Source: Candidatus Omnitrophota bacterium
GTDB lineage: Bacteria; Omnitrophota; Gorgyraeia; Zapsychrales; Zapsychraceae
Assembly: GCA_029261055.1 (NCBI GenBank)
Contig: JAJDCA010000018.1
Span: forward strand, 18,197-82,196
Length of the DNA: 64,000 bases
Direction: 5' to 3'
A model generated the notes under the pieces. That model did not search any database. It was not told where the DNA came from and worked only from the letters and a program-made list of their open reading frames with translations. A program made the translations under genes and the position numbers. This document shows positions 39,372 through 51,277 of the stretch, one piece after another (the first letter of the stretch is position 1; each line of letters starts with the position of its first letter).

Positions 39372-40346
39372 TTACCAATCCTTTAAAACCCGTTGCGCCT
39401 TTCCTTTTCGACGATAAAAGTTTAATAATCCTTTGGGTTCTTCACTCTGTTGATACCCATTTAATAACATTTGAGCTTCTTTTTCTGTCAATCCTTCGAT
39501 AATCTCAGGACTCTGTCCTTCTTTAGAGTCAGAACTTTGTTCTTCGGCAGACTCAGAACCCTGCTCTTTGTCTCCTTCATTTTCAGAGCCTTCTTCTCCT
39601 TGACTCTTTTGAGATTCTTCCTGCTCTGATTCTTGCTGTCCCGATTCTTGCTCTTGCTGCTTTTCGCCGTCTTGACTTTCTTGAGATTGTGGAGAGTTTT
39701 CTTCTTGCTCTTTTTTCTCTTGTTGAGAAGACTGATCTTGCTGGGACTTATTCTCTTGACCTTCTTTGTCTTCTTGCTGATCTTCTTGCGATTGTTTGTT
39801 TTGTTTTTGTCCTTGCTGTTGCTTTTGTTGTTGCTGTTTAACCTTTAAACGCTCAATTTCTTCTAAAACAAAATCATAATTCGATTTGGCATCTTCATCT
39901 TGAGGATCAATTTTTAAGGCATTGTCATACTGTGTTGTCGCATCTTCTAATAACGAAATGGCATTTTCAATCTTGTCATTTTCTTGTGAAGCGCCTAATT
40001 TGTAAAGTGCATTCCCTAAATTGTAATGCCCTTTTTCTTTTAGAATCTTATCTTCGGAAAGAAGAGATTTTTGCAGACGATAAATGGCCCTTTGATATTC
40101 TCCCTGCTTGTACAAAGCCGTTCCAAGGTCGAAGTTAATAATATCAGATTCCGAATCTTTTTCTACAGCTTGCTGATATTTTTCAAATGCCCCTGCGTAG
40201 TCCCCTTTTTCATACAATACATTACCTTCTTTAACGTTTTTCGCAGGCGAAGCAAATCCTAGGGTTGGAAAAAGAAATAAAAAACAAAGATGCAAGATGC
40301 AAGATGCAAGATACAACCAAATTTGACTATTATTTTTTTCTCTCAT
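39372..40346 (-). CDS. BatC-like TPR protein with acidic Q/E/K-rich C-terminal tail
   Basis: Signal peptide; TPR units (GDYAGAFEKYQQAVEKD...); low-complexity QQQKQQQGQKQNKQSQEDQQEDKEGQE tail; sits at the end of the MoxR-vWA operon. Confidence 0.55.
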   Translation of the reverse strand: MREKNNSQIWLYLASCILHLCFLFLFPTLGFASPAKNVKEGNVLYEKGDYAGAFEKYQQAVEKDSESDIINFDLGTALYKQGEYQRAIYRLQKSLLSEDKILKEKGHYNLGNALYKLGASQENDKIENAISLLEDATTQYDNALKIDPQDEDAKSNYDFVLEEIERLKVKQQQQKQQQGQKQNKQSQEDQQEDKEGQENKSQQDQSSQQEKKEQEENSPQSQESQDGEKQQEQESGQQESEQEESQKSQGEEGSENEGDKEQGSESAEEQSSDSKEGQSPEIIEGLTEKEAQMLLNGYQQSEEPKGLLNFYRRKGKAQRVLKDW

Positions 40347-40361
40347 TTTTTCTCTTATCTC

Positions 40362-41378
40362 TTACTTCTTGCTTCTTGTTTTTTTTGACCGTTCATCTCT
40401 CCTAGCCCCCAAACACGTTTCCCCCACCAACAATAAAAGGGCTAAAGCCAAAGGAATTTGAAACCGTTCGTAATATTTTTTCTCTCGTTTACTTTCAATA
40501 TCCCGTTTCTCCAACTTCGCTAACTCACGCTCGTAAATCAAATCTAAACCAAATTGCGCACCGCCAGCCTTAACGTAAGCACCACCGGTCGTCAAAGCGA
40601 TTTGCTGTAACAACTTTTCATTAAGTCGTGATTTAACGTAATTCCCTTGTTCATCTTTAAGAAATTCGCCATTACCGATTTGAATCAACTCTCCTTCTTG
40701 CGTCCCAATGCCCACCGTGTAAATTTTAATCCCCTCTTCTTTGGCCTTCTGCGCGACCTTCAAAGGTTCACCTTCCAAATTATCGCCGTCCGTCACCACA
40801 ATAATGGCCTTGTATTGATTCGATGTTTTGTCATACCCCTTCATGGCCTCGGTAACCGCCTTAGCAATATTGGTTCCCCCAACCGGAATAATGTCCGGGG
40901 CTAAATCATTAAGGCTTAGCATAAAACCATTGTAATCTACCGTTAACGGGCACAACAAAAAAGCATCTCCGGCAAAGGCCATCAAACCGATGCGATCCCC
41001 TTTCAATTTACGCAACAAATCTTTTACGGCTAATTTCGTTCGCTCCAGCCGATTTGGTTTCACATCCTGCGTCAACATACTTTTCGAAACATCCACCACC
41101 ACCAAAATATCAATCCCCTTACGTTTAACCTCTTCCCATTCAAAACCCCATCGCGGACGGCTTAGAGCCAGAATCGAAAACACAATCACAGCCAACAAAA
41201 GAATATTCTTCCACCGCCATCGTGAAACGTCAAAACCCAAAGCAACATCTTTAATAAGCTTAGTTTCCACAAAGCGTCCCATGATTTTTTTCCGACGGCT
41301 CACAGCCTTAAACAGCAAAAACCCCACCACCGGCACAAACCACAATAAATGTAATAATTGTCCCTGAACAAAATTCAT
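40362..41378 (-). CDS. vWA domain membrane protein (BatB-like)
   Basis: N-terminal TM helices; VVDVSKSM MIDAS-like motif. Confidence 0.7.
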   Translation of the reverse strand: MNFVQGQLLHLLWFVPVVGFLLFKAVSRRKKIMGRFVETKLIKDVALGFDVSRWRWKNILLLAVIVFSILALSRPRWGFEWEEVKRKGIDILVVVDVSKSMLTQDVKPNRLERTKLAVKDLLRKLKGDRIGLMAFAGDAFLLCPLTVDYNGFMLSLNDLAPDIIPVGGTNIAKAVTEAMKGYDKTSNQYKAIIVVTDGDNLEGEPLKVAQKAKEEGIKIYTVGIGTQEGELIQIGNGEFLKDEQGNYVKSRLNEKLLQQIALTTGGAYVKAGGAQFGLDLIYERELAKLEKRDIESKREKKYYERFQIPLALALLLLVGETCLGARRDERSKKTRSKK

Positions 41379-41396
41379 AATTTAAAAACCATTAAC

Positions 41397-41442
41397 GCAC
41401 CTCGTAGGTGTAATCGCACCTACGAGGTGCGTTTATTTACGG
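41397..41442. terminator. Intergenic hairpin between the two vWA genes (17-bp perfect stem)
   Basis: aacgcacctcgtaggtg taatcg cacctacgaggtgcgtt followed by tatttacgg; shares the CCTCGTAGG core with the site-2 cassettes. Confidence 0.4.
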
Positions 41443-42489
41443 TATTTTGAAAAATACTGTATTAACTAAAACAATTTCTAAAACCAACAATATTAACGCT
41501 GCTATTAAAAACATCCCAAACAATTCTTCATACTGAAAGTACCCGTACTCTTCAATCTCAATTTTTTCCATGGCATCAATAGCGTCATAAATCTCACGCA
41601 AAGACTTTTCATCTGTAGCACGAAAATATTGACCATCTGTAATCTGAGCTACTTCTTTAAGCATTTCCTCATCTAATCCAAAACGCGCAGGCTTGTAAAC
41701 CTTACGTCCCTTCCTATCTATCCCAACAGGATAAGGAACTGCCCCGTTAGTTCCGGCTCCGATGGTGTAAATTTTAATATCCAACGCCTTTGCTACACCA
41801 GCCATGGAAATAGGGTCAACTTTTGCTACCGTATTAACCCCATCCGTTAATAAAATAATAATTTTACTTTTAGCATCACTCGTTTTTAATCGTGCTACGG
41901 ATGAAGCAATAGCCGAACCCACAGCCGTACCATCATGAATTTGCCCTAATTCCACACGATCCAAATTTTCAATCAACCAGCTGAAATCTGTTGTCAAAGG
42001 GCACACCGTGTAAGCTAAACTAGCAAAGACAATAAGACCAATACGATCATGTTCCCTATTTCTAATAAATTCTTTAACTACGCTCTTAACAATTTCTAAG
42101 CGATTCACTCGTTCTTTTTTAATAAAAAAATCCTCGGATGCCATACTACTAGAAGAATCAATCGCCAGCACAATATCAACCCCCTCTGCTGTATGAACCG
42201 TCTCCTCCAATACAGACCGCGGCCCAGCCAACGCAACGACAAACAATGCTAAAGCTAGCAAGCGCACCCCAAAAGGAATCCACCCTAACCGAATTTTCCA
42301 TGATGGATCAACCGCCCCCAACAAATCCCCAGATGGAAACCGAAACGTCGAAACCTTCTGCCGTCTACGAAAAATAAAGACGCCTCCTAAAATAATTGGG
42401 AGTAGTAATAACATTAAGGGGCTTTTAAATACCATTGTTTTTCTAGAAGCAAGAGGCAAGAAACAAGAAGCAGAAAAACAAAGGAACAA
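41437..42489 (-). CDS. vWA domain membrane protein (BatA-like)
   Basis: LAIDSSSSM MIDAS motif; N- and C-terminal TM helices. Confidence 0.7.
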   Translation of the reverse strand: MFLCFSASCFLPLASRKTMVFKSPLMLLLLPIILGGVFIFRRRQKVSTFRFPSGDLLGAVDPSWKIRLGWIPFGVRLLALALFVVALAGPRSVLEETVHTAEGVDIVLAIDSSSSMASEDFFIKKERVNRLEIVKSVVKEFIRNREHDRIGLIVFASLAYTVCPLTTDFSWLIENLDRVELGQIHDGTAVGSAIASSVARLKTSDAKSKIIILLTDGVNTVAKVDPISMAGVAKALDIKIYTIGAGTNGAVPYPVGIDRKGRKVYKPARFGLDEEMLKEVAQITDGQYFRATDEKSLREIYDAIDAMEKIEIEEYGYFQYEELFGMFLIAALILLVLEIVLVNTVFFKIP

Positions 42490-42568
42490 GATGTAGAGAA
42501 AAAAACTAATTAACTAATTTCTTTACTTCTCTGACCTCTTACCTCTTTGCTTCTTACTTCTCTGCCTC

Positions 42569-43102
42569 TTACTTCTCAACTTCTCGTCTCTGTTTCGTTT
42601 CCTCTACAAGCTTCTTCGCCAATCCAAACCCCTTCTCCGCCTCTTCCGGTGGCGGGGCGTATTTGGCGAATTTGACCATGTCGCAGCAGGTTAAAAAATC
42701 TTTCAGAGATTCTTTCTGATTTGTATTAAGTTTTGGTGAATATTGCAATGAAAGCAAAAACTCTTCCGTCGTCATCTCTGGCGCGCGAATGGAAAAACGA
42801 TCCTCAATGTAATGGCGTACAATGTCGGACAAACGCTGGTAGTACTCCACCATTTTTCCCTGTGCCAAAAGATTTTCTTTTTGCAACTGGGCTAATAATT
42901 CAAAAGCCTTAATCCACGGAGGCTTGACGTCGACTTGCGGAACTGCAGCAGGTTTATTTTTGTATTTTTTCCACCAATAAAAAACCGCTCCCCCTACGGC
43001 TACCAACAAAAGGAAAATAAACAAATAACCCCAGCCAAATTCTAATGGCAAACCCACCGGGGCTTTTACATCTCTAAGTTCTTGGGCGTAAGCTGTTGTC
43101 AT
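42569..43102 (-). CDS. DUF4381-like small membrane protein of Bat/MoxR operons
   Basis: 177 aa with a single TM helix; lies between the DUF58 and vWA genes as in canonical MoxR-DUF58-DUF4381-vWA operons. Assignment is by context and architecture only. Confidence 0.4.
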   Translation of the reverse strand: MTTAYAQELRDVKAPVGLPLEFGWGYLFIFLLLVAVGGAVFYWWKKYKNKPAAVPQVDVKPPWIKAFELLAQLQKENLLAQGKMVEYYQRLSDIVRHYIEDRFSIRAPEMTTEEFLLSLQYSPKLNTNQKESLKDFLTCCDMVKFAKYAPPPEEAEKGFGLAKKLVEETKQRREVEK

Positions 43103-43109
43103 AAATAGT

Positions 43110-43169
43110 CGCTCGTCGCGCGTGTCGCGTGACTCGTTTTTTACGAGCCACGCGTCACGAGCGACGAGC
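43110..43169. repeat. Imperfect GC-rich hairpin (gtcgcgtgactcg...acgagccacgcg family) in the DUF58-DUF4381 spacer
   Basis: gctcgtcgcgcgtgtcgcgtgactcgt ttttttt acgagccacgcgtcacgagcgacgagc; a related motif (tgtgtcgcgtcacgcgcgacgagcc) sits at 6444..6468 in the fabG-acpP spacer. Confidence 0.5.
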
Positions 43170-43173
43170 CCCT

Positions 43174-44067
43174 TTATCCTTTCCTTTTCCGTCTCTTTAA
43201 AAAGAATTTCACCATCGCATCTACGTACGGCACGTCGGTTGACATGTCCATAAAATCCATGCCGATGGAATTAAATAATTTTTCCCGTTGTGCCAACCGC
43301 CTTTGATTGCTCACCCGGTATTGATTACGCACCCCCGCATCGGATGTATCAATATGAAATAAACTTCCACTTTCCGCATCATGTAATGCCAGAACGCCAC
43401 AATTCGGCAATTCTTTTTCCCGAGGATCATTCAGCGTAACTGCAATCATGTCGTGCCGTTTGTTGGCCGTCGTCAGTCGCTTTTTCAAAACAGGCCATGT
43501 ATTGACGCCGACAAAAAAATCTGAAATCAAAAATGAAATAGTTTTACGTGTGGTCACACGATTGAGATATTCCAAGGCATGCACAATATCGGTACCTTGA
43601 CCTTCTGGCTCAAAATACAATACCTCACGGATGACACGCAAAACATGTTTTAAGCCTTTCCGTGGAGCAATAAATTTCTCAATTTTGTCCGTAAAAATAA
43701 TCAGTCCAACCTTGTCATTATTACGAATCGCTGACGTAGCTAAAACGGCCGACACTTCCGCCGCCAACTGACTCTTCAACGCATGCGTTGAAGCAAACCG
43801 GCTGGACTGCGAAACATCCACCAAAATCATCACAGTCAGTTCCCGCTCCTCAACAAACTTCTTCACAAACGGCCGCCCATGCCGGGCTGTTACGTTCCAA
43901 TCAATCGTACGAATATCATCCCCAGGCTGGTATTCCCGCACCTCATCAAACTCAATTCCCTGCCCCTTAAACACACTGTGATACTGCCCGGCAAACACAT
44001 CCGAAACCATGCGCCCCGTCGTAATCTCAATCTGTTTAACCTTTTGTAATATTTCTTTTGGAATCAT
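43174..44067 (-). CDS. DUF58 domain protein (MoxR-associated)
   Basis: EFDEVREYQPGDDIRTIDWNVTAR motif typical of DUF58. Confidence 0.7.
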   Translation of the reverse strand: MIPKEILQKVKQIEITTGRMVSDVFAGQYHSVFKGQGIEFDEVREYQPGDDIRTIDWNVTARHGRPFVKKFVEERELTVMILVDVSQSSRFASTHALKSQLAAEVSAVLATSAIRNNDKVGLIIFTDKIEKFIAPRKGLKHVLRVIREVLYFEPEGQGTDIVHALEYLNRVTTRKTISFLISDFFVGVNTWPVLKKRLTTANKRHDMIAVTLNDPREKELPNCGVLALHDAESGSLFHIDTSDAGVRNQYRVSNQRRLAQREKLFNSIGMDFMDMSTDVPYVDAMVKFFLKRRKRKG

Positions 44068-45146
44068 TTGTCTAAGAATTCTTTTTCAATTTCTTCAACC
44101 GCAGGTAAAGAGGATTTTAAATTATCTGGTAAAGCACGTGTCAATTCATATTCAGACACTCCTATCGGTTTAGTAAACCCCCTTAATGAATACTCAGCAA
44201 CAATTTTGTTTTTATCCTGACAAAGAATAAGGCCAATAGTCTGGTTGTCTGCCTTCTGCTTTAATTTATCATCAACCACATTACAATAAAAATTCATCTT
44301 ACCGGCATAATCAGGTTTAAATGTCCCCTTTTTTAAATCAATGACAATAAAACATCTTAATGTAAGATGATAAAATAAAAGATCAATGTAAAAATCACTA
44401 TCTCCAATGTCCAAGTGGTACTGCCTGCCGACAAATGAAAATCCTTGCCCAAGTTCAAGTAAAAATTTTTCCAAATGTCGTACAAGACCTGTTTCAAGCT
44501 CCCTTTCATGAAAAGGTTCTTCAAGGGTCAAAAAATCAAATATGTAAGGATCTTTAAGAGTTTGTTTAGCAAGATCAGATTGAAATGCTGGTAAACGTTG
44601 CTCAAAATTTGTAATGGCTTGTCCTCCACGCTCATAGGTTTGATTATCAATCATCAATTGAAGGACATTCCGGCTCCATCCTTCTTTTATGGTCATATTC
44701 ATGTACCATAATCTAGCTGAAAAATTCTTAATCTTAGAAATTAATAATACATTATGCCCCCAAGGCAATTTTGCAACAGCCTGTTGCACTTTTGCAGAAA
44801 TGCTACTCGGATCTAATATTTTTTGTGTTTTCTTAATTTTTGCAACAGGCTGTTGCAAAATTGATAAATCTGGATATTCACGGGCAAATCGTATCATGTA
44901 CCCGATGTTCCTTTCTGAAAATCCCTTAATTTCGGGTAATTCATTTCGAAGATCTTTTGATAAATTTGGAATAATACCCGTGCCCCACCCTTCCATTTTT
45001 TGCCGCTTTTCAATCATCTGCCCAATATCCCAATAAAGATAGATTAATTCCGCATTAACAGACAAGGCCGCTTTGGTCTGCGCTGTTTGAATCCTACTTT
45101 TAATTTGCACTAAAAAACTTTGATATTCTTTTTTTGAAATTTTCAT
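44064..45146 (-). CDS. DUF1016/YhcG-family PD-(D/E)XK nuclease-like protein, embedded inside the MoxR operon
   Basis: N-terminus ...AELIYLYWDIGQMI...GWGTGIIPNLSKDL...GFSERNIGYMIRFAREYP (DUF1016_N pattern); C-terminus D..(E/D)LK-like region DLKKGTFKPDYAGKMNFY. Overlaps the DUF58 start by 4 bp and lies 20 bp from the MoxR stop. Confidence 0.55.
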   Translation of the reverse strand: MKISKKEYQSFLVQIKSRIQTAQTKAALSVNAELIYLYWDIGQMIEKRQKMEGWGTGIIPNLSKDLRNELPEIKGFSERNIGYMIRFAREYPDLSILQQPVAKIKKTQKILDPSSISAKVQQAVAKLPWGHNVLLISKIKNFSARLWYMNMTIKEGWSRNVLQLMIDNQTYERGGQAITNFEQRLPAFQSDLAKQTLKDPYIFDFLTLEEPFHERELETGLVRHLEKFLLELGQGFSFVGRQYHLDIGDSDFYIDLLFYHLTLRCFIVIDLKKGTFKPDYAGKMNFYCNVVDDKLKQKADNQTIGLILCQDKNKIVAEYSLRGFTKPIGVSEYELTRALPDNLKSSLPAVEEIEKEFLDK

Positions 45147-45165
45147 TTACAACAACCTCTTGTTA

Positions 45166-46161
45166 TTACGGCACTTCCACTTCATCTAATATTTTCTTAA
45201 TAATATCTTCCGGCGTCTTTTCCTCAGCTTCGGCTTCGTAGGTGATGATGACACGATGCCGAAGAACATCCATGCCGATGGATTTAACGTCCTGCGGGGT
45301 GACGTAACCTCGCCCCTGCACGAATGCGTAGGCCTTGGCGGCAATCGCTAAATTAATCGTCCCTCGCGGGGAAGCGCCGTATTGGATGAGGTCTTTAATG
45401 TCTTCAAGATTGTATTTCTCCGGATGTCGCGTGGCCTCAACAATGTCGACGATGTATTTTTGCACTTTTTCATCCACATAAATTTCATCGACCACTTCAC
45501 GTGCCCGCAAAATATCTTCCGGCTTAATAATTTTCTGCACATCTGTTTTGGCCTTCGTAAAAGACATGCGCTTGAGAATCTCGAGTTCTTCCTCTTTGGT
45601 CGGATATTCAATTTTGAGTTTAAACATAAATCGATCGACCTGCGCTTCAGGTAAAGGGTATGTCCCTTCCTGTTCAATCGGATTTTGCGTCGCTAAAACC
45701 ATAAACGGTTCATCCAATTTCATCGTCTCCTCCCCAATCGTCACTTGCCGCTCCTGCATGGATTCCAACAAAGCACTTTGCACTTTAGCCGGCGCGCGGT
45801 TAATCTCATCCGCCAAAATAATATTCGCAAAAATAGGCCCTTTTTTTACAGTAAACTCACTCTTCCTCTGATCATAAATCAGCGTCCCTACAATGTCCGC
45901 CGGCAGCATGTCCGGCGTAAACTGCAGGCGTTGAAACTTCGTTTGAATCGTCGACGAAAGCGTCTTGATTGACATCGTTTTAGCCAATCCCGGAACCCCT
46001 TCAAGCAAAATGTGCCCGTCTGCCAGAATACCAACAATCAATCGTTCCAACAAATACCTCTGCCCCACAATCACCTTCTGCGTCTCCAGCAAAAGTCCCT
46101 CAATAAATCCACTCGCCTTCTTCACCTTTTCATTAATCACCGTAATGTCACTGTGTGTCAT
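45166..46161 (-). CDS. MoxR-family AAA+ ATPase
   Basis: ILLEGVPGLAKT Walker A; QNPIEQEGTYPLPEAQVDRF; 331 aa. Confidence 0.85.
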   Translation of the reverse strand: MTHSDITVINEKVKKASGFIEGLLLETQKVIVGQRYLLERLIVGILADGHILLEGVPGLAKTMSIKTLSSTIQTKFQRLQFTPDMLPADIVGTLIYDQRKSEFTVKKGPIFANIILADEINRAPAKVQSALLESMQERQVTIGEETMKLDEPFMVLATQNPIEQEGTYPLPEAQVDRFMFKLKIEYPTKEEELEILKRMSFTKAKTDVQKIIKPEDILRAREVVDEIYVDEKVQKYIVDIVEATRHPEKYNLEDIKDLIQYGASPRGTINLAIAAKAYAFVQGRGYVTPQDVKSIGMDVLRHRVIITYEAEAEEKTPEDIIKKILDEVEVP

Positions 46162-46183
46162 AATTACTCCTCCTTTAAAATAA

Positions 46184-46212
46184 CTGTACGGGCGGTTCGC
46201 GAACCGCCCCTA
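46184..46212. repeat. REP-like GC-core hairpin between the moxR start and the upstream gene stop
   Basis: gtacgggcggttcgcgaaccgcccctac; a sister of the copy at 52722. Confidence 0.7.
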
Positions 46213-46224
46213 CTCCAATTTTTT

Positions 46225-47229
46225 TCATATCTTAAACCCCTGATCCACCAACTCCTGATTCAAAAACCGTCCCTCGGCGGCAACTTTGTGTGCGTCTGTC
46301 TCGCCGGGCAAATAGAAAATGTCAGCTAGCGGGCGATCATATTTGTCGTAGCCGTAGGTTTTGATTACCAAAAATTTAACATTTTTTAGCTGATTTTCTA
46401 CAAATTTTTTTGCTTTTTGCCCCTCTACTGTCTTTAATTCTGGAGCGTAAACATCACGAAGCCTGAGCCGCTGGGTGGACATGTTGTGAAATCCTAAATC
46501 AATATTCACACGAATGGTGTCTCCGTCGGTAATCTTGTCAATAAAGGCTTTGTAGGTGAATGTTTTATTCTTTGCCGTGGTGGTTCGTTTAAAGCGGTAG
46601 CCATCTTCTCCTGTCTTCGTACACACGAGAATATCCTTGGCTTTGGGCTGCGTGATGCCTGTGAGTGACTTGTATGCATAAAACTTAAACCCACAGTCTA
46701 CCTGCAAAACGCCATTAACGATTTTAAGGAAATAATGGTACAACTGCCCGCGAACAAGCTTCAAGGGTTCTGAAGAAATATTTATTTGGGAATGAAAAGA
46801 TCTGGAAGACGCATATTTTTCCGCACGAACAATTTGTCTAAGCTGACGGGTGTTAAGATTTTCTTTGACAATGCGTTCTTCCAACTTCCGGCGCATTTTT
46901 AAATCTTCGACCCTAAGCAAAGTACGGTAGTGATCCCAATTAAAGAGTCGACGCGCGCCGACTTTTGGATACTGCCGGTAAAATTTGAGCGCATTAAACA
47001 GTGTTGCACGGTCAACCTGCGTATCTTGACTCAAGCGATTGACCACAGCCTCCCCGTACCCAGCCCGCACTTTATTCTGCAAAAGATCCCTGGCAATATG
47101 CTGCCCAACCTTCCAATACATTGCCGCCGTCGCCTGCTCTACAGCCTTGCGTCCAACGGCGATCTCATCTTTTACAGACTTCAGAAGCTTATTGTAAGTC
47201 GACAATGCTTTTGACATTTTAAAAAGCAC
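46225..47229 (-). CDS. Fusion protein: DUF1016_N-like domain + staphylococcal-nuclease (SNase/thermonuclease) domain
   Basis: N-terminus ...AAMYWKVGQHIARDL...GYGEAVVNRLSQD...FYRQYPK parallels the DUF1016 N-domain of the 44064..45146 gene; C-terminus DGDTIRVN...LRLRDVYAPE...YDRPLADIF matches SNase catalytic motifs. Confidence 0.5.
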   Translation of the reverse strand: MLFKMSKALSTYNKLLKSVKDEIAVGRKAVEQATAAMYWKVGQHIARDLLQNKVRAGYGEAVVNRLSQDTQVDRATLFNALKFYRQYPKVGARRLFNWDHYRTLLRVEDLKMRRKLEERIVKENLNTRQLRQIVRAEKYASSRSFHSQINISSEPLKLVRGQLYHYFLKIVNGVLQVDCGFKFYAYKSLTGITQPKAKDILVCTKTGEDGYRFKRTTTAKNKTFTYKAFIDKITDGDTIRVNIDLGFHNMSTQRLRLRDVYAPELKTVEGQKAKKFVENQLKNVKFLVIKTYGYDKYDRPLADIFYLPGETDAHKVAAEGRFLNQELVDQGFKI

Positions 47230-47235
47230 CCCAGA

Positions 47236-47263
47236 AAAAAGTACGTACGCGCGTACGTACTTT
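47236..47263. repeat. 28-bp perfect palindrome between the SNase-fusion gene and the MNT gene
   Basis: aaaagtacgtacgcgcgtacgtactttt. Confidence 0.7.
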
Positions 47264-47586
47264 TAAAACACATTTTTATTCTTTTCTTTCACGTAAAATA
47301 TTTTCCCACATTGATCAATATGAGTTTTAAAGGCAGGATTCGTGGTGGTCGCATAATCAACTACGTCAAAAAAATACGGCAAATTTGTTTCTTCCTCTAA
47401 AATGGCTTTAACTTTAGCTGTAACATCAAGATTAATGTCCCCTTTGAGAGCTAGGTCAACGTCCGACCCTTTTTTGTGTGTATTCACAGCCCGAGAACCA
47501 AAAATGAGCACACTTTCTATTTCGTCAAATTGACGAAAAATATTTTTGACCTGAATAATTTCCTGCTCTGTTAAACCAAAATTCAT
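47263..47586 (-). CDS. Nucleotidyltransferase (MntA-like antitoxin, Pol-beta superfamily)
   Basis: IFGSRAVNTHKKGSDVDLAL = GS...D.D nucleotidyltransferase motif; 107 aa. Confidence 0.7.
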   Translation of the reverse strand: MNFGLTEQEIIQVKNIFRQFDEIESVLIFGSRAVNTHKKGSDVDLALKGDINLDVTAKVKAILEEETNLPYFFDVVDYATTTNPAFKTHIDQCGKIFYVKEKNKNVF

Positions 47587-47595
47587 TTTATTGAT

Positions 47596-47997
47596 TCATT
47601 CCGACTTTAAGGATTTAAAAAAACCATGCGTTTCCTGAATCACTTTAAAATATTTTTCCTTAATAAGATCCACGGCCTCCTGCACTCTGGCCTCATCGTA
47701 GGTATGCGTCATCAAATTACGCTTTTCAAGCATCTCAAGCCATGCCGTACCATCTGGAATGTATTGCGCCTGGTACGCTTGCTTAATAGTATCACGCGGA
47801 CTTGTAGCCGTGATACCGTTAAACTCCAAATAATCTTTCAACGTTTTCCAGGCAAGTTCAAAGGTAAATTCAAATGTTTGAATAAGGCCTGCCCGAATAA
47901 GTTTATCATTACCGGCTTCCCGTTCAACAGCCTCACACAATTGCCGAAAAGCCTTGTCAAAATTTACAAATCGTTGTTGCCATCGAAGTTCTGTCAT
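47596..47997 (-). CDS. HEPN-domain protein (HepT / HI0074-family nucleotidyltransferase substrate-binding toxin)
   Basis: 133 aa; R..MTHTYDE HEPN-like motif; located immediately upstream of the MNT gene. Confidence 0.65.
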   Translation of the reverse strand: MTELRWQQRFVNFDKAFRQLCEAVEREAGNDKLIRAGLIQTFEFTFELAWKTLKDYLEFNGITATSPRDTIKQAYQAQYIPDGTAWLEMLEKRNLMTHTYDEARVQEAVDLIKEKYFKVIQETHGFFKSLKSE

Positions 47998-48019
47998 AAA
48001 ATACCTACCTCACTTTTTC

Positions 48020-51000
48020 TCACTCAAAAAACACATCCACCCGCGCGATTTTTTTGCTGCGGACATCTTCGGCATAAGGAGCCGGGATTGATGGTGATGA
48101 AAATACAACTGGCTTTTTGCGGTCTGCATAGTGCAGCTGAATTTCTCTCACTTCCGCTTTATTAGGACCAAATGTGTCTTTGCGATTAGGATTGTGGTAA
48201 ACAACAAGAATGTGACCTAAAAATTTGAAGGCGTACGTATTTTCCGGCAAATCGCCGACAGCCTTGTTTGTAAATAACCATGCCGCTAAAGCCGGTTGAA
48301 AATTCAGAACAAGTTTTTTCTCGGGACTCAACGTAAACGGATTTTTTCCAACATTCATCATCAACCACATGTGCACAAATTCGGCGGTACTTCCGGAAAG
48401 ACGCGCCACAAACCCACGCCCATGCAAAGCCGCATCATCATTGGCACTACTGACAATAAAGGAAGAATTTTCTAACACACTACGCCCGTACGTCTCCGGA
48501 TTCAAAAAGGGAACAAACACATGACGAAAATTTTCATAAAATTCTTCATACAATTCAGAACGCAAAATCTCTAACATAAATTTGTATTCCATGTGCATCC
48601 AAATTGATTCGTTTTCTAACCAACCCCGAGGGAAAATACGCATGCGTCCGATTTCATCGGTTTCGCTGTTCAAATCAGCATTCAATTTGTACATCTTTAA
48701 CTTCTTGTCAAAAAGGTGACTATCCCTCACTTGCCGGTACAACTCTTTAGCCTTGTCATGATTCGTTTCTACTCTTAAGGCATGGACATACCCCTCCAAA
48801 AACAACGGCAGCGCATGTTTTTTAAACTGCGTCGGACGAACATAAACACCTGCGTCCTGATTAGTTTTGTCCAGACTTTGATACTCTGTAATGTCATGAT
48901 AAAAATACGTGGCCATCAAACCGTTGTCGGCCTTGGCCTGATCAACAGCCTTATTAACTCTGTCGATGACTAAACTGAGAAAGTTTTTAATCTCGGTAAC
49001 CTTCATAGCTTTTTCTGCCCCATCAATACCCTGACGGACACATTGGCGGTAACGCTCTTTGACATCATTAGCTTTATTCCAATACGCCTGCGGATCAGCT
49101 TCCAAAGATAAAATATGATTCAACCCGGAAACAAAGGTGGCCAGCTCTTCAAAAACCAAAATTTCCTCATTGTCTTCACAAGAAAGCTGCTTCAATGATT
49201 CGAGCAAAAACACACTAAAACGCTTCACTTCTAATGTTTCAGAAATGGCGGATCCCATGAGCCCCGGCAATCCGTTAAGCGAATCGCACCAGTTTGGCTT
49301 GTCAGCTTCCATCTCAACCCCGACGCCACTTGGATCTAAAGAAGAAATTTTATTTGCAATGAGACAAAGAAGCTTACATGCAAGATGCGTGTAATACACA
49401 GCCCCTTCCCCATTTCTTGTTTTCAACATGTGCCCATTATTTTCATCTGATTTTTCCTTAGACGCACATGCTACCGACTTGTATTGACGCACCCCGTGAT
49501 CTGTTAGCATGTAACGCTGATCACGCGGCAAAACATAATGGTCATTGTGGTAAAAATAAAACGGCTTTTTCTCAAGAAGCAATGACTTTAAATTTTCCGG
49601 ATAAAGCGTGAAATAACTGATGACCATGTCCATGTTGTATTTCCAATGGTCCGACCAAAAACCTTCACCATGATCTGCCAATTCCTGCTTACGGCACACT
49701 TCAAGGATGCGGCTCAGAAATTCCTTTACGCTTCCCTGCACAGAAAAATCATTTTCTGAAATAAAAAGAAGCAAATCTCCCGGAAGAAAAGTTTTTGTTA
49801 AAAATTCTTTCAATTTTGGCTGATCCTCTTCACCAAAATATGTCTGCAAAATACTTTTGCACTTTTCCTGATCCTCCACGGAAAAAGCCGTCCCCTTAAC
49901 CACAAGAGGATTGTACCCATCCGCCTGCACCAAATTCAAAAAACTAATCATATGATTGTCACCTACATCACCGTTAAACCAGACATCGTTGCGCCGATTC
50001 TGATTCACGTCACGGTAATTCCCATTACCCTGTGAATAATACGTCGCGGCAACAAAGAAATAATTGTAATCCCGTTCCAGATCTCCATGTTTTCGACTGT
50101 ACACGTTAAACGCCACATGCCCGTCATTGGTCTTCAACGAAACAGGAAGTCCTCCTCGCAAAATATTATCGAGGAACGTGTGCCCGCAATATTTGTCAAA
50201 CTCAGGCGAAGAACTGTGCGTTAACGCAAAACTTTTGATATCGTCAATGATCTCTTTATTTCTTTGCGCCTTATTCGCCAAAAAATCACCCGCCACAATA
50301 TTGTCCACAACCGCGTTTAACTGCTCAACACTCCGGGCAAACCCCAACACAGAAAAAATATCTTTCTTCGCCTTAGGGGCTACGGTAAAACGTCCGTAAC
50401 TCATGGCTGCCGGCGTACGATTGTCGGTCAATTGTTTGTCTGGTAAAGAAAAATCATCTTTCAGAAAATTAAGCGGAGCAATAAAATCATGGGCTTCGCC
50501 AAATACACGGGAAGCCTCGACAATAGGCTGCAATAATTTATCCCCCGACGCGTCCGGATCAAAACTAAAAAAGAAATTCCCTTCGGCGATCGGTGTTACC
50601 CGAGGCTTGTCAGACACTTCAACGTTCAGCTGAAAATACGGCGCCTTATTCTCAATATTACGCACCTTCACCCAGGCTTCAACCGTACGGGCAATAAATT
50701 TATTAAGCTCATCCGTAAGTCCAAACGGTACAATTAAAGGCAAACCATCGACCAATTCAATATCACGCTGTACAGTCCCTGTATTTTCTACCGTCAAGTG
50801 GCGAACCAGCCCGGCATACGGTTCATCCGGCAGGGTAAAATAATTAACCTTCACGGTTAAGCCTAAATCATGATTCACTTCTGTCAGCGTCAAATCATGC
50901 GCGGTCATGGACATGGTTTGTTTTGTGTCAAAATTTGTCCCGGTTAAATGCCGTTGAAATGGTTCCCAGTAAACAGGGTCACCCTTGCCGGAAGACACCT

Positions 51001-51277
51001 TAATAAAAGTACGAAATCCCTGCAACGCTGTGATCCGGTAAGACTTATTGGCCGGCTGAAATTCCATAATTGCATTATTCTTCGCTTCAATCCCGCAACT
51101 GGCAATACATTGCCCACGATTGACATAAAACGCCCACATCGGAATTCCCCACAATCCGGCAATGCCTGGAAAAAAGTTACTAAACGGTTTGCTCTCATTG
51201 TAATTTTCAATAACAAAACATCCCTTGTCGTCTAATTGATACTGTGCTTCTTGGGATGGTGATTTTTTCTTATTCAT
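48020..51277 (-). CDS. Large (1085 aa) uncharacterized protein, possibly a glycoside hydrolase/phosphorylase-like enzyme
   Basis: Long intact ORF with no signal peptide and no motifs I can place confidently; neighbours are GH15 and CE4 genes. Confidence 0.25.
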   Translation of the reverse strand: MNKKKSPSQEAQYQLDDKGCFVIENYNESKPFSNFFPGIAGLWGIPMWAFYVNRGQCIASCGIEAKNNAIMEFQPANKSYRITALQGFRTFIKVSSGKGDPVYWEPFQRHLTGTNFDTKQTMSMTAHDLTLTEVNHDLGLTVKVNYFTLPDEPYAGLVRHLTVENTGTVQRDIELVDGLPLIVPFGLTDELNKFIARTVEAWVKVRNIENKAPYFQLNVEVSDKPRVTPIAEGNFFFSFDPDASGDKLLQPIVEASRVFGEAHDFIAPLNFLKDDFSLPDKQLTDNRTPAAMSYGRFTVAPKAKKDIFSVLGFARSVEQLNAVVDNIVAGDFLANKAQRNKEIIDDIKSFALTHSSSPEFDKYCGHTFLDNILRGGLPVSLKTNDGHVAFNVYSRKHGDLERDYNYFFVAATYYSQGNGNYRDVNQNRRNDVWFNGDVGDNHMISFLNLVQADGYNPLVVKGTAFSVEDQEKCKSILQTYFGEEDQPKLKEFLTKTFLPGDLLLFISENDFSVQGSVKEFLSRILEVCRKQELADHGEGFWSDHWKYNMDMVISYFTLYPENLKSLLLEKKPFYFYHNDHYVLPRDQRYMLTDHGVRQYKSVACASKEKSDENNGHMLKTRNGEGAVYYTHLACKLLCLIANKISSLDPSGVGVEMEADKPNWCDSLNGLPGLMGSAISETLEVKRFSVFLLESLKQLSCEDNEEILVFEELATFVSGLNHILSLEADPQAYWNKANDVKERYRQCVRQGIDGAEKAMKVTEIKNFLSLVIDRVNKAVDQAKADNGLMATYFYHDITEYQSLDKTNQDAGVYVRPTQFKKHALPLFLEGYVHALRVETNHDKAKELYRQVRDSHLFDKKLKMYKLNADLNSETDEIGRMRIFPRGWLENESIWMHMEYKFMLEILRSELYEEFYENFRHVFVPFLNPETYGRSVLENSSFIVSSANDDAALHGRGFVARLSGSTAEFVHMWLMMNVGKNPFTLSPEKKLVLNFQPALAAWLFTNKAVGDLPENTYAFKFLGHILVVYHNPNRKDTFGPNKAEVREIQLHYADRKKPVVFSSPSIPAPYAEDVRSKKIARVDVFFE

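Follow-up and report, generated by a model that had tools for sequence, protein, structure and literature searches.

A DUF1016 nuclease gene as a probable horizontally acquired guest in the moxR-DUF58 spacer of an Omnitrophota Bat-type operon

Introduction

In a contig of a Candidatus Omnitrophota bacterium (JAJDCA010000018.1, assembly GCA_029261055.1), a gene for a YhcG/DUF1016 nuclease lies between moxR and the DUF58 gene of a MoxR-vWA operon. Is this gene a working part of the operon, or a guest that happened to land there? A preliminary description of the analysed stretch of 64,000 nucleotides (the window) offered both readings, i.e. the insertion of a selfish or defence-related gene that left the operon unbroken, or an operon that couples the MoxR/vWA machinery to a nuclease. 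It proposed to compare synteny, to search with HMMs and to compare GC content and codon usage.

The host operon and its relatives

The gene order on the minus strand is moxR, DUF1016/YhcG, DUF58, DUF4381, vWA, vWA and TPR, and both the ORF coordinates and Pfam agree with the order described earlier. The first host gene, moxR (45166-46161), is intact (AAA_3, 2.6e-66, and AAA_lid_2), and residues 1-331 of its product align to 80 loci, most of them from Omnitrophota, with 66-79% identity. The DUF58 gene (43174-44067, minus strand; 4.9e-75) is also intact, as the alignment of its 297 residues with relatives spans residue 1 to about 281-297. It is followed on the same strand by a DUF4381-like membrane protein (42569-43102), whose Pfam match of 1.9e-06 is barely over the cut-off and whose position is conserved in relatives, and by a protein with BatA_N and VWA domains (41437-42489). 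The latter probably starts at the ATG at 42438 rather than at the listed TTG, because its relatives align from residue about 16-19. A second vWA protein (40362-41378, minus strand; VWA_2, 1.2e-21) and the final gene, a TPR protein (39372-40346, minus strand; Pfam TPR families) with an acidic Q/E/S-rich tail after the repeats, are assigned by Pfam and synteny.

The host is thus an otherwise canonical housekeeping operon of the Bat type, MoxR-DUF58-DUF4381-vWA-vWA-TPR. The Bacteroides-type Bat aerotolerance operon consists of moxR, DUF58 and batA-E, and the families and their order are the same here (MoxR AAA_3, DUF58, DUF4381, BatA_N-vWA, vWA, TPR). However, neither the canonical form nor any of the 80 related loci has a nuclease at the moxR-DUF58 junction, where the two genes are -4 to ~300 nt apart in most of the 80.

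The inserted gene

The guest gene (44064-45146, minus strand) encodes a full-length PD-(D/E)XK nuclease of the YhcG/DUF1016 family with 360 residues. Both expected Pfam domains were found. DUF1016_N (PF17761, 6.4e-44) covers residues 14-173 (44628-45107, minus strand); it is alpha-helical, and a variable linker breaks it at about residues 95-127. An AlphaFold2 model, poor overall, has helices in this region and pLDDT <50 for residues 95-134. The nuclease domain YhcG_C (PF06250, 4.8e-67) covers residues 194-348 (44103-44567, minus strand). The family motif is E-D-E(I/L/V)K, in a core that resembles archaeal Holliday-junction resolvases (PMC1189080). All motif residues (E218, D255, D270 and K272) are present in the guest protein; an alignment of homologues (A1) shows no variation at D255 and K272 and either E or D at position 270. 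The PADLOC profile PDC-S02 matches at 6.3e-149. Homologues from many phyla are 65-82% identical to the guest protein, and dN/dS against the nearest ones is about 0.09-0.10. The gene has been shaped by purifying selection and retains its catalytic motif and its full length.

Its composition is foreign to its surroundings. The GC content is 0.343 and GC3 is 0.277, the lowest GC3 among the 41 ORFs of the window, far below moxR (0.461/0.530) and DUF58 (0.446/0.466); within the window the GC content is not extreme (z about -2), and a few native genes have a similar GC3. At 68 homologue loci the GC content of the gene tracks that of its flanks (r = 0.92, difference 0.002 +/- 0.039), and the present copy is therefore un-ameliorated. 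With 82% identity (dS about 1.3), even the closest known homologue is too distant to point to a donor or to a date of acquisition.

Junctions

The spacer between moxR and the guest gene, TAACAAGAGGTTGTTGTAA (45147-45165, minus strand), is 19 nt long and not 20 bp as described earlier, with the moxR stop at 45166-45168 and the guest ATG at 45144-45146. It holds a Shine-Dalgarno-like AAGAGG (45156-45161), 9 nt ahead of the ATG. At the other end, the TGA stop of the guest shares ATGA with the ATG of DUF58 (44064-44067), the 4-nt overlap already noted in the preliminary description. In some relatives (L019, L026, L050 and L057) moxR itself overlaps DUF58 by ATGA, and the DUF58 of relatives begins ATGAT. 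The spacers of relatives at this junction measure -4 to 171 nt. The 19 nt may represent the stretch that once separated moxR from DUF58; the guest would now use it and would have captured its Shine-Dalgarno sequence.

In blastn, similarity to the closest homologues (78% at the nucleotide level) begins with the ATG (45146) and breaks off at 44077, 13 nt short of the stop. This leaves a 3' junction (44064-44076, minus strand) in which the final codons (..FLDK*) pass into the ATGA with which DUF58 begins, and homologues have 3-29 additional, non-conserved C-terminal residues past the end of the guest protein, typically about 10. Two near-identical homologues (99%; L091 and L092) in different contexts have in common only the ORF and about 33 nt per side. 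The unit common to the guest and its relatives is essentially the ORF alone. No direct or inverted repeats flanking the guest gene were found, Pfam detected no transposase or integrase domains in the neighbouring genes, and the junctions leave no room for an attC site. Regarding the mechanism of insertion, no recombinase, target duplication or shared ends are visible.

Family context

The earlier description of DUF1016 genes as usually solitary is inaccurate. They are single-gene units, yet most are nested co-directionally, with a co-directional neighbour upstream in 54/63 cases (86%) and downstream in 55/66 (83%), and with a neighbour within 30 nt in 35/63 and 31/66, respectively. The commonest context, accounting for about a quarter of the genes, is nesting between hsdM and hsdS (HsdM upstream in 15 loci, HsdS downstream in 17). 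Type III mod/res, Cas1, RAMP and hsdR are further contexts, and housekeeping hosts include carA (4-nt overlap, L085), folD (L082) and aguB|DUF1016|aguA (L171). Homologues are carried by 533 plasmids, spread over >100 genera, and appear in 15 phage records. DUF1016 genes have been reported amid type I R-M core genes (PMC9881135) and, in a Rickettsia conjugative element, between traU and traW (PMC4316617). PADLOC files the family as the candidate defence system PDC-S02; the PDC candidates go back to Payne et al. (bioRxiv 10.1101/2024.01.29.577857), who drew them from genes lying inside BREX, DISARM and type I R-M systems, and one PDC-S02 representative that was assayed gave no protection against T4, T5 and T7 (PMC12881386). 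YhcG/DUF1016 is a widespread, horizontally moving family, for which co-directional nesting in the operons of others is the normal lifestyle.

Compared with the R-M-embedded DUF1016 genes of Payne et al., the guest belongs to the same family and shows the same tight co-directional nesting inside a multi-gene operon. However, its host is a MoxR-vWA operon without a known defence role, in contrast to the R-M, BREX and DISARM hosts, and the embedding is therefore not readable as cooperation between defence systems. YhcG of E. coli K-12 (b3220), the uncharacterised protein after which the family is named, has the same two-domain architecture and aligns over its full length, but is clearly divergent, and its gene stands alone with yhc fimbrial genes on one side and the nan operon on the other.

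The gene for the anticodon nuclease PrrC, which lies within the EcoprrI type Ic R-M operon and shares its expression, is likewise a stand-alone nuclease gene wedged into a host operon. However, PrrC has an ABC-ATPase plus HEPN-like nuclease fold and is restrained by the host R-M proteins, while nothing suggests such restraint by MoxR/vWA. Free-standing phage homing endonuclease genes, such as seg and mob of T4, are also ORF-sized nuclease genes placed precisely in the spacer of conserved genes and absent from relatives. Here, in contrast, recurrent occupation of the site is seen in 0/80 loci and cleavage of the empty site is not evidenced. To our knowledge, YhcG/DUF1016 is not a recognised homing-endonuclease family.

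A conserved palindrome within the coding sequence

The guest gene carries a palindrome, TGCAACAG-N-CTGTTGCA, in two copies. Palindrome 1, TTTTGCAACAG-C-CTGTTGCAAAA (44838-44860), has 11-bp arms and encodes ILQQPVAK in the linker, while palindrome 2, TGCAACAG-G-CTGTTGCA (44772-44788), has 8-bp arms, encodes VQQAVAK and sits immediately ahead of the conserved LPWGHN motif. Jointly, the two can form a long-range stem of 22-23 bp (z = -5.4). In 71 genes, the stem homologous to palindrome 1 shows 92.4% pairing, with compensatory changes at 11/11 pairs. The yhcG gene of E. coli K-12 has a perfect 33-nt palindrome, AAAGATTTGGCAGAC-GCT-GTCTGCCAAATCTTT, at the homologous position, i.e. the palindrome is kept at the same place in the linker from Omnitrophota to E. 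coli K-12. Pairing at the DNA level is suggested because G.U-type pairs are few and strand bias is absent. We found no published report of a conserved palindrome within the YhcG/DUF1016 coding sequence.

Some pairs of homologues are mosaic, with a break between N- and C-terminal identity at the palindrome (e.g. 84% vs 94% for L085 and L092). The mosaicism is modest, with a mean C-minus-N identity difference of 0.047 +/- 0.038 and outliers 1.5-4 sd off.

A second insertion upstream of moxR

A separate three-gene insertion (46225-47997, minus strand) lies upstream of moxR. According to Pfam it comprises, all on the minus strand, a HEPN-type NTase_sub_bind gene (47596-47997), an MNT nucleotidyltransferase gene (47263-47586) and a fusion of DUF1016_N with a staphylococcal nuclease (46225-47229), after which a terminator-like hairpin follows (46177-46222). 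In five relatives (L002, L003, L005, L007 and L046) a GH149-like gene of 1085 aa adjoins moxR directly, with a gap of 25-112 nt. The DUF1016_N-SNase fusion family is rare (36 matches, best non-self identity 48%).

Guest, partner, relic or artefact

The coupling of the nuclease to MoxR/vWA, as an effector recruited in the manner of the MoxR-vWA NTP-dependent conflict systems, might be read from the tight packing of the operon (19-nt spacer, 4-nt overlap), from the bpMoxR profile (PF20030), which the ATPase matches weakly as a secondary hit (2.5e-14), and from the DUF1016_N-containing nuclease gene on the other side of moxR. However, the DUF1016 family packs tightly in any host operon, the ATPase belongs to the classical AAA_3 type of MoxR (222 vs 53 bits for bpMoxR) with no beta-propeller protein present, and the upstream nuclease gene has a terminator-like hairpin of its own behind it. 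The pairing occurs in 0/80 related operons, and MoxR, DUF58, DUF4381 and vWA are missing among the neighbours of DUF1016 homologues at all 91 loci, while the foreign composition indicates a recent arrival. The coupling proposed in the preliminary description thus finds no support and we regard it as very improbable; lineage-specific functional recruitment keeps some small room because MoxR identity to the sampled relatives does not exceed 79%. An ancestral operon member, lost from every other sampled lineage, would fit an intact gene under purifying selection, but many independent precise losses would be needed across the 80 loci, GC3 lies 0.19-0.25 under that of the neighbours, the nearest relatives occupy unrelated contexts and phyla, and the match list suggests that the guest nests within homologues of other phyla. 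This origin is, if anything, still less probable. The sequence is metagenomic and the arrangement is seen in one sample only, so a chimeric join in assembly or binning has to be considered as well. However, the identical 9.1-kb arrangement is present in L001, from a Logan assembly of SRR15505515, a run that possibly represents the same sample as the window, and both junctions are in-frame, functional gene boundaries with a native-looking Shine-Dalgarno sequence and ATGA, which a random chimera would not yield; an artefact is the least probable explanation of all.

It can also be speculated that DUF1016 genes are autonomous, homing-like or addiction-like invaders of operons, with the palindrome serving in cis, for instance as a cruciform that the resolvase-like nuclease encoded by these genes would recognise, so that the embedding would reflect a mode of spread and neither cooperation with the host operon nor defence. 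The precise placement of the ORF amid conserved genes, both in the present operon and in carA, folD, aguB-aguA, R-M, CRISPR and conjugation loci, fits this idea, as do the mobile unit of about the ORF +/- 33 nt, the covarying palindrome with its apparent DNA-level pairing, the resolvase-like core, the mosaic breaks and the failure of one PDC-S02 representative to protect. However, all 80 other genomes have an empty moxR-DUF58 site, which gives no hint of site-specific homing, and a palindrome internal to the gene cannot mark the ends of an element. Moreover, the mosaicism is modest, and one negative assay with three phages weighs little against defence. We consider this scenario rather unlikely.

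The insertion of a selfish or defence-related gene into an unbroken operon, the other reading offered earlier, is instead strongly supported by the 0/80 junctions, the foreign composition and the intact flanks. We suggest that the DUF1016 gene is, in all likelihood, a horizontally acquired single-gene guest in the moxR-DUF58 spacer of an Omnitrophota Bat-type operon, and that its nuclease is probably unconnected in function with the MoxR/vWA machinery; an insertion without coupling is, overall, well favoured.

Proposed mechanism

The guest would have inserted into the short moxR-DUF58 spacer, leaving both flanking genes intact. From the spacing, it would have no promoter of its own and be transcribed from that of moxR. 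Its translation would start from what was probably the ribosome-binding site of DUF58, and DUF58 would be translationally coupled to the guest via the ATGA overlap, as to moxR in some relatives. The product most likely works alone, as a DNA nuclease that targets foreign or structured DNA, and would act either as an innate-defence factor (candidate PDC-S02) or as a selfish, addiction-like element. Given an uncoupled insertion, a role in defence is a serious possibility, if short of an even chance, while a selfish or addiction role and some other role are each a more doubtful, minority prospect. For a family that makes a habit of nesting in operons, the landing of a DUF1016 gene in a MoxR-vWA operon is nothing unusual.

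A nuclease gene inside a standard MoxR operon

The minus strand between 39372 and 46161 carries seven ORFs, all co-directional. By Pfam they encode a MoxR ATPase (45166-46161; AAA_3 2.6e-66, AAA_lid_2), a two-domain YhcG/DUF1016 protein (44064-45146), DUF58 (43174-44067; 4.9e-75), a DUF4381-like protein (42569-43102), a BatA_N-vWA protein (41437-42489), a second vWA protein (40362-41378) and a TPR protein with an acidic, Q-rich tail (39372-40346), i.e., the gene order given in the preliminary description. The host operon thus has the Bat-type families in the Bat-type order (MoxR AAA_3, DUF58, DUF4381, BatA_N-vWA, vWA, TPR). The stop of the DUF1016 gene and the start of DUF58 overlap by 4 nt (ATGA), as described earlier, while the moxR stop is separated from the DUF1016 gene by a 19-nt spacer, TAACAAGAGGTTGTTGTAA, with an SD-like AAGAGG, and not by 20 bp. 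The same arrangement is found in L001, the Logan assembly of run SRR15505515.

A MoxR-vWA-beta-propeller ternary conflict system (bpMoxR) was considered and rejected, as the ATPase scores 222 bits with AAA_3 vs 53 bits with bpMoxR (PF20030), and Pfam finds no beta-propeller protein among the operon genes. PADLOC gives a marginal DolB match for MoxR (E 0.0037) and no match for DUF58. The spacer between the two vWA genes contains a strong hairpin (41394-41433) whose 17-bp stem has 10 G-C pairs; with the T-run behind it, it resembles a terminator on the operon strand, and it lies mid-operon. The TTG start listed for the BatA_N-vWA gene is probably too far upstream; the likely start is ATG 42438, because the alignments to relatives and to the BatA_N profile begin at residue about 16-19.

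The DUF1016 assignment of the inserted gene, here called the guest, is confirmed by HMM search. Both domains are well over their cut-offs: DUF1016_N (PF17761) with 6.4e-44 and 149.8 bits (cut-off 32.8), and the C-terminal YhcG_C PD-(D/E)XK domain (PF06250) with 4.8e-67 and 225 bits (cut-off 32.5), over the full profile 1-157. The E...D...(D/E)xK motif, as defined for the YhcG family (PMC1189080), is intact (E218, D255, D270-L-K272). D255 and K272 are invariant in the homologue alignment, while position 270 is E in homologues and D in the guest. The nuclease core of the family is nearest to YraN-like proteins, archaeal Holliday-junction resolvases and DUF91, and its N-terminal domain of roughly 200 aa is helical with an unknown fold (Kosinski et al., PMC1189080). 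Against the five nearest homologues, dN/dS is about 0.09-0.10 at dS about 1.3 (Nei-Gojobori), and the guest is functional-looking. A phmmer search of PDB sequences gave no matches, and the AlphaFold2 model, from a 10-sequence alignment, is poor (pLDDT 45, pTM 0.37). The best PADLOC match is PDLC04795 of the candidate defence family PDC-S02 (6.3e-149, residues 3-357).

Synteny in both directions

The MoxR query retrieved 80 loci from one-genome-per-species contigs, mostly from Candidatus Omnitrophota at 66-79% identity, and all proteins of the window were searched against them with tblastn. In most of the loci that reach far enough, the moxR-DUF58-DUF4381-vWA-vWA-TPR order is kept. None of the 80 has a DUF1016 match, so the canonical operon lacks a nuclease, as had been assumed, and the gene order with DUF1016 is not a conserved one. 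The distance from moxR to DUF58 in these relatives is usually -4 to about 170 nt, and in four of them (L019, L026, L050, L057) moxR itself overlaps DUF58 through the same ATGA. The overlap is therefore inherent in the DUF58 start (ATG ATy CC).

In the reverse direction, the guest protein has thousands of homologues at 63-82% identity, annotated as coming from WS2, Elusimicrobia, Nitrospirae, Geobacteraceae, Kiritimatiellaeota and others. We collected 91 loci around DUF1016 homologues, and a MoxR, DUF58, DUF4381 or vWA gene is found in the flanks of none of them. Among the 80 and 91 loci examined, the pairing of the MoxR operon with DUF1016 is unique in both directions.

How the gene may have entered the operon

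The composition of the guest sets it apart. Its GC is 0.343 and its GC3 of 0.277 is the lowest among the 41 ORFs of the window, below both flanking genes: moxR (0.461/0.530) has the highest GC3, and DUF58 has 0.446/0.466. In 68 homologue loci, the GC of DUF1016 genes tracks that of the flanks (r = 0.92, mean difference 0.002 +/- 0.039), and the closest relatives of the guest lie in contexts of 31-39% GC. From the offset of -0.10 GC to its immediate neighbours, the guest copy is un-ameliorated.

The preliminary description offered two readings, a nuclease gene inserted without breaking the operon, or an operon that couples the MoxR/vWA machinery to a nuclease. The first is right, given the synteny, the foreign GC, and the integrity of the flanking genes: relatives align to the full length of MoxR and to nearly the whole of DUF58. 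Coupling finds no support in either set of loci.

The boundaries of the insertion are tight. Nucleotide similarity to the closest homologues (76-78%) extends from ATG 45146 to 44077, 13 nt short of the stop. Homologues run 3-29 non-conserved C-terminal residues, typically about 10, past the end of the guest, which has ..FLDK* in place of this tail and reads into the DUF58 start. The DUF1016 genes of L091 and L092, two comparison loci, are 99% identical and lie in different contexts; they share only the ORF and about 33 nt on each side, so the mobile unit is little more than the ORF.

A transposon, IS or integron cassette is rejected as the vehicle. No flanking repeats (target duplication, terminal inverted or direct) were found in 43800-48100, and no duplicated moxR 3' or DUF58 5' ends around the guest. 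The neighbouring genes (39372-47997) carry no transposase or integrase domains by Pfam, and the 4-nt overlap and the 19-nt spacer leave no room for an attC. A free-standing homing endonuclease would leave the same site sporadically occupied, a pattern that the 80 related junctions, none with a DUF1016 gene, do not show. Duplicated DUF58 5' ends in Verrucomicrobia loci prompted the idea that the N-terminus of the guest (MKISKKEYQS) was borrowed from the DUF58 start (MIPKEILQKV); this was rejected, as homologues elsewhere start alike (MRIAKREYQKF, MMKIVKREYQKF). The simplest reading is that the guest DNA entered by illegitimate or micro-homology insertion into a short spacer, and the insertion could have been retained because it left the operon undisrupted. 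The two ORF starts share AAATGA, the sole microhomology, and in AT-rich sequence such a match could be due to chance. The moxR-DUF58 spacers of relatives (-4 to 171 nt) are too variable in length and sequence to define an ancestral one, and scans for promoters and terminators around the insertion found sites no more frequent than in shuffled sequence.

Nesting is the habit of the family

For a neighbour census of the 91 DUF1016 loci, neighbours of at least 80 aa were counted. The neighbour is co-directional in 54 of 63 cases upstream and 55 of 66 downstream, and it overlaps or lies within 30 nt in 35 of 63 and 31 of 66, respectively; 16 of 51 DUF1016 genes are tightly packed on both sides. Nesting in operons is thus the rule, and the premise that DUF1016 proteins are usually solitary is wrong. 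By Pfam, the upstream neighbour is HsdM in 15 loci, and the downstream neighbour is HsdS in 17. DUF1016 genes are also hosted by type III mod/res (L158), hsdR (L127), Cas1 (L103) and a RAMP gene (L121), and others are in integrase or ORF6N contexts. Housekeeping hosts include carA, with a 4-nt overlap (L085), folD (L082), and L171, where DUF1016 lies between an aguB-like CN_hydrolase and an aguA-like agmatine deiminase. A position between carA and carB in L085 was rejected, as the downstream gene, judged from its translation, does not look like carB and appears methyltransferase-like. Paired DUF1016-type genes occur in L091 and L149.

DUF1016 genes have been reported between core genes of type I R-M (PMC9881135), in a Rickettsia conjugative element between traU and traW (PMC4316617), and on ICEs and prophages. 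Homologues were found on 533 plasmids, which come from >100 genera, and in 15 phage records.

The PDC systems are candidates still to be tested, proposed because their genes are embedded in BREX, DISARM and type I R-M systems ('guilt by embedding'). With PADLOC, no known defence system adjoins the guest, its flanks being moxR and DUF58; an MNT/HEPN pair and a DUF1016_N-SNase gene lie 1-3 kb upstream. Another PDC-S02 representative gave no protection when challenged with T4, T5 and T7 (PMC12881386).

Other insertions around moxR

A second insertion is found on the other side of moxR. In five related loci (L002, L003, L005, L007, L046), of which the first four rank among the nearest by MoxR identity, 25-112 nt separate moxR from an adjoining GH149-like gene of 1085 aa. 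The window has three genes between the two, none of which is present there in these five loci. Two form a pair of MNT nucleotidyltransferase and HEPN-type NTase_sub_bind (47263-47997, minus strand; Pfam), toxin-antitoxin-like with a weak match to PADLOC PDC-S09. The third is a fusion of DUF1016_N to a staphylococcal nuclease (SNase) domain in place of PD-(D/E)XK (46225-47229, minus strand; Pfam). Thus moxR is flanked by two separate insertions, the guest on one side and the three-gene block on the other. The SNase-fusion family is rare, with 36 database matches, some in Omnitrophota, and a best non-self identity of 48%. Its member here is 22% identical to the N-domain of the guest, has a host-like GC of 0.442, and lacks the linker and palindrome; a terminator-like hairpin (46177-46222) follows it. 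The fusion suggests that DUF1016_N may be a portable targeting module.

The GH149-like gene itself (48020-51277, minus strand) matches GH149 beta-1,3-glucan phosphorylase only weakly and in part (115 bits; cut-off 1150), and is kept beside moxR in several Omnitrophota relatives.

The moxR-DUF58 junction of other loci holds guests of other kinds. These are 23S_rRNA_IVP four-helix-bundle genes in L013:6982-7359 (Pfam) and L049:5146-5526 (sequence resemblance only), a PIN gene (Pfam) after two small ribbon-helix-helix-antitoxin-like ORFs in L067:2950-4053, and a KilA-N gene (Pfam) with an IS200/RAYT-type-transposase-like ORF in L074. Among the 66 downstream neighbours of DUF1016 genes, 23S_rRNA_IVP occurs once. 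Gene cassettes occupy the junction in L074:6900-11000 and in Verrucomicrobia (L075:8600-9330, L078:7990-9245, L080:6900-9235); their ORFs resemble addiction-module, NTase, TPR, KilA-N and IS200-like genes, of which Pfam confirmed KilA-N only. In all four loci, direct repeats of the DUF58 5' end, 68-93 nt long, enclose the cassettes, and in L074 and L080 so do 71-83-nt repeats of the moxR 3' end, at 85-96% identity. This looks like an integration hotspot that would regenerate gene ends. The junction in the window has no such DUF58-5' or moxR-3' repeats. Separately, the moxR (ends 6993)-DUF58 spacers of the Omnitrophota relatives L006, L008, L010 and L014 consist of runs of short tandem or palindromic motifs, e.g., GAGTT-rich, GTCACA/TGTGAC, AGGTGTTAGGTT and GTCGATAGTC repeats.

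A covarying palindrome in the linker

Within its coding sequence the guest holds two copies of the palindrome TGCAACAG-N-CTGTTGCA, at 44841-44857, where it extends to 11-bp arms (44838-44860), and at 44772-44788. The window has no further match, and none would be expected by chance. The two copies encode ..LQQPVAK.. and ..VQQAVAK.. in the N-domain, within a variable linker of low model confidence and immediately ahead of the conserved LPWGHN motif.

When 83 homologues are codon-aligned with the proteins as guide, the codons of the stem prove nearly invariant (Leu TTG 39/39, Lys AAA 53/53, Ile ATT 56/59, Ala GCA 58/76), while in columns outside the stem all synonymous codons are in use. At least 15 distinct, perfectly palindromic variants occur at the linker position, for example TGCCACAG.CTGTGGCA, TGCCGCAG.CTGCGGCA, CGCCACCG.CGGTGGCG and GGCAACAG.CTGTTGCC. 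The density of perfect 8-N-8 palindromes in DUF1016 genes is about ten times that outside them (0.51/kb vs about 0.05/kb), and 46 of 48 lie at gene nt 251-422. In the 71 ungapped sequences, the 11-bp stem pairs in 92.4%, vs 78.6% for shuffles and 28-47% for slid partners. Double-sided changes are seen in all 11 stem pairs, in 84 cells vs 22.7 expected, and none of 500 shuffles reached this number. The helix is also the one that RNAalifold predicts.

Shared GC pressure could mimic such covariation, and the common variants do all raise GC in both arms; yet it is judged insufficient because of the nearly fixed stem codons, the many perfect variants and the low pairing of slid partners. No strand bias is seen in the pairing: G.U pairs are rare in the stem (8 of 781 cells), and A.C mismatches, which would read as G.U in the complementary strand, are no rarer. 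Nothing thus favours a sense RNA; pairing at the DNA level is suggested, and a DNA hairpin or cruciform seems no less likely than an RNA structure.

The palindrome is widespread but not universal. At the homologous position, E. coli K-12 yhcG (L173:12828-13955) has a perfect palindrome of 33 nt with 15-bp arms; the arms measure 13 bp in a paralogue in L091 (34% identical), 12 bp in a Salmonella phage fragment and only 7 bp in a copy on a Deinococcus plasmid. No palindrome is present at the linker in Wolbachia phage WO orf3 or in the L149 paralogue. The feature was also placed at L082-L172, L091:2335-3396 and L176. An Rfam search of the gene region found no family, and its far-sub-threshold, miRNA-precursor-like matches reflect a long hairpin rather than a known family. 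Of the 15 papers ranked highest for yhcG/DUF1016 combined with palindrome, hairpin or cruciform, none mentions yhcG or DUF1016.

There are weak hints that the palindrome may be a point of recombination or truncation. In some homologue pairs, identity switches at the linker between the N- and C-terminal parts (84% vs 94% in L085/L092, 79% vs 91% in L086/L087), and L128/L161 likewise differ before vs after it. Six PDC-S02 sub-models (PDLC04794, 04797, 04800, 04805, 04808 and 04821) are 107-133 positions long and match up to residues about 92-109. Given the Holliday-junction-resolvase-like core, it may be conjectured that a cruciform in the gene is a cis-site for the encoded nuclease.

Implications for the YhcG/DUF1016 family

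The insertion is an ordinary case of the known lifestyle of a known but uncharacterised family. The MoxR-vWA system is standard and the nuclease is its passenger, so there is no new MoxR-nuclease system to infer. The guest is a clean example of a PDC-S02 'guilt-by-embedding' candidate, a family that nests in non-defence operons (moxR-DUF58, carA, folD, aguB-aguA). The embedding is therefore partly the lifestyle of the gene itself and no proof of defence, and the modest value of the guest is as a counter-example to embedding as defence evidence.

The palindrome, with its abundant compensatory changes, is a concrete handle on the action and control of YhcG/DUF1016, a very common family. A much wider reading, which we consider rather improbable, is that YhcG/DUF1016 genes form a very large class of minimal, self-contained guests of any operon (R-M, CRISPR, conjugation, housekeeping), carrying within the gene a conserved, cis-acting cruciform or hairpin palindrome that could serve as a site for their own nuclease, in autoregulation, in recombination of N- and C-modules, or in spread. 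If true, 'guilt by embedding' would misassign YhcG/DUF1016 as defence, and the idea could be tested directly on the perfect 33-nt palindrome of E. coli K-12 yhcG.
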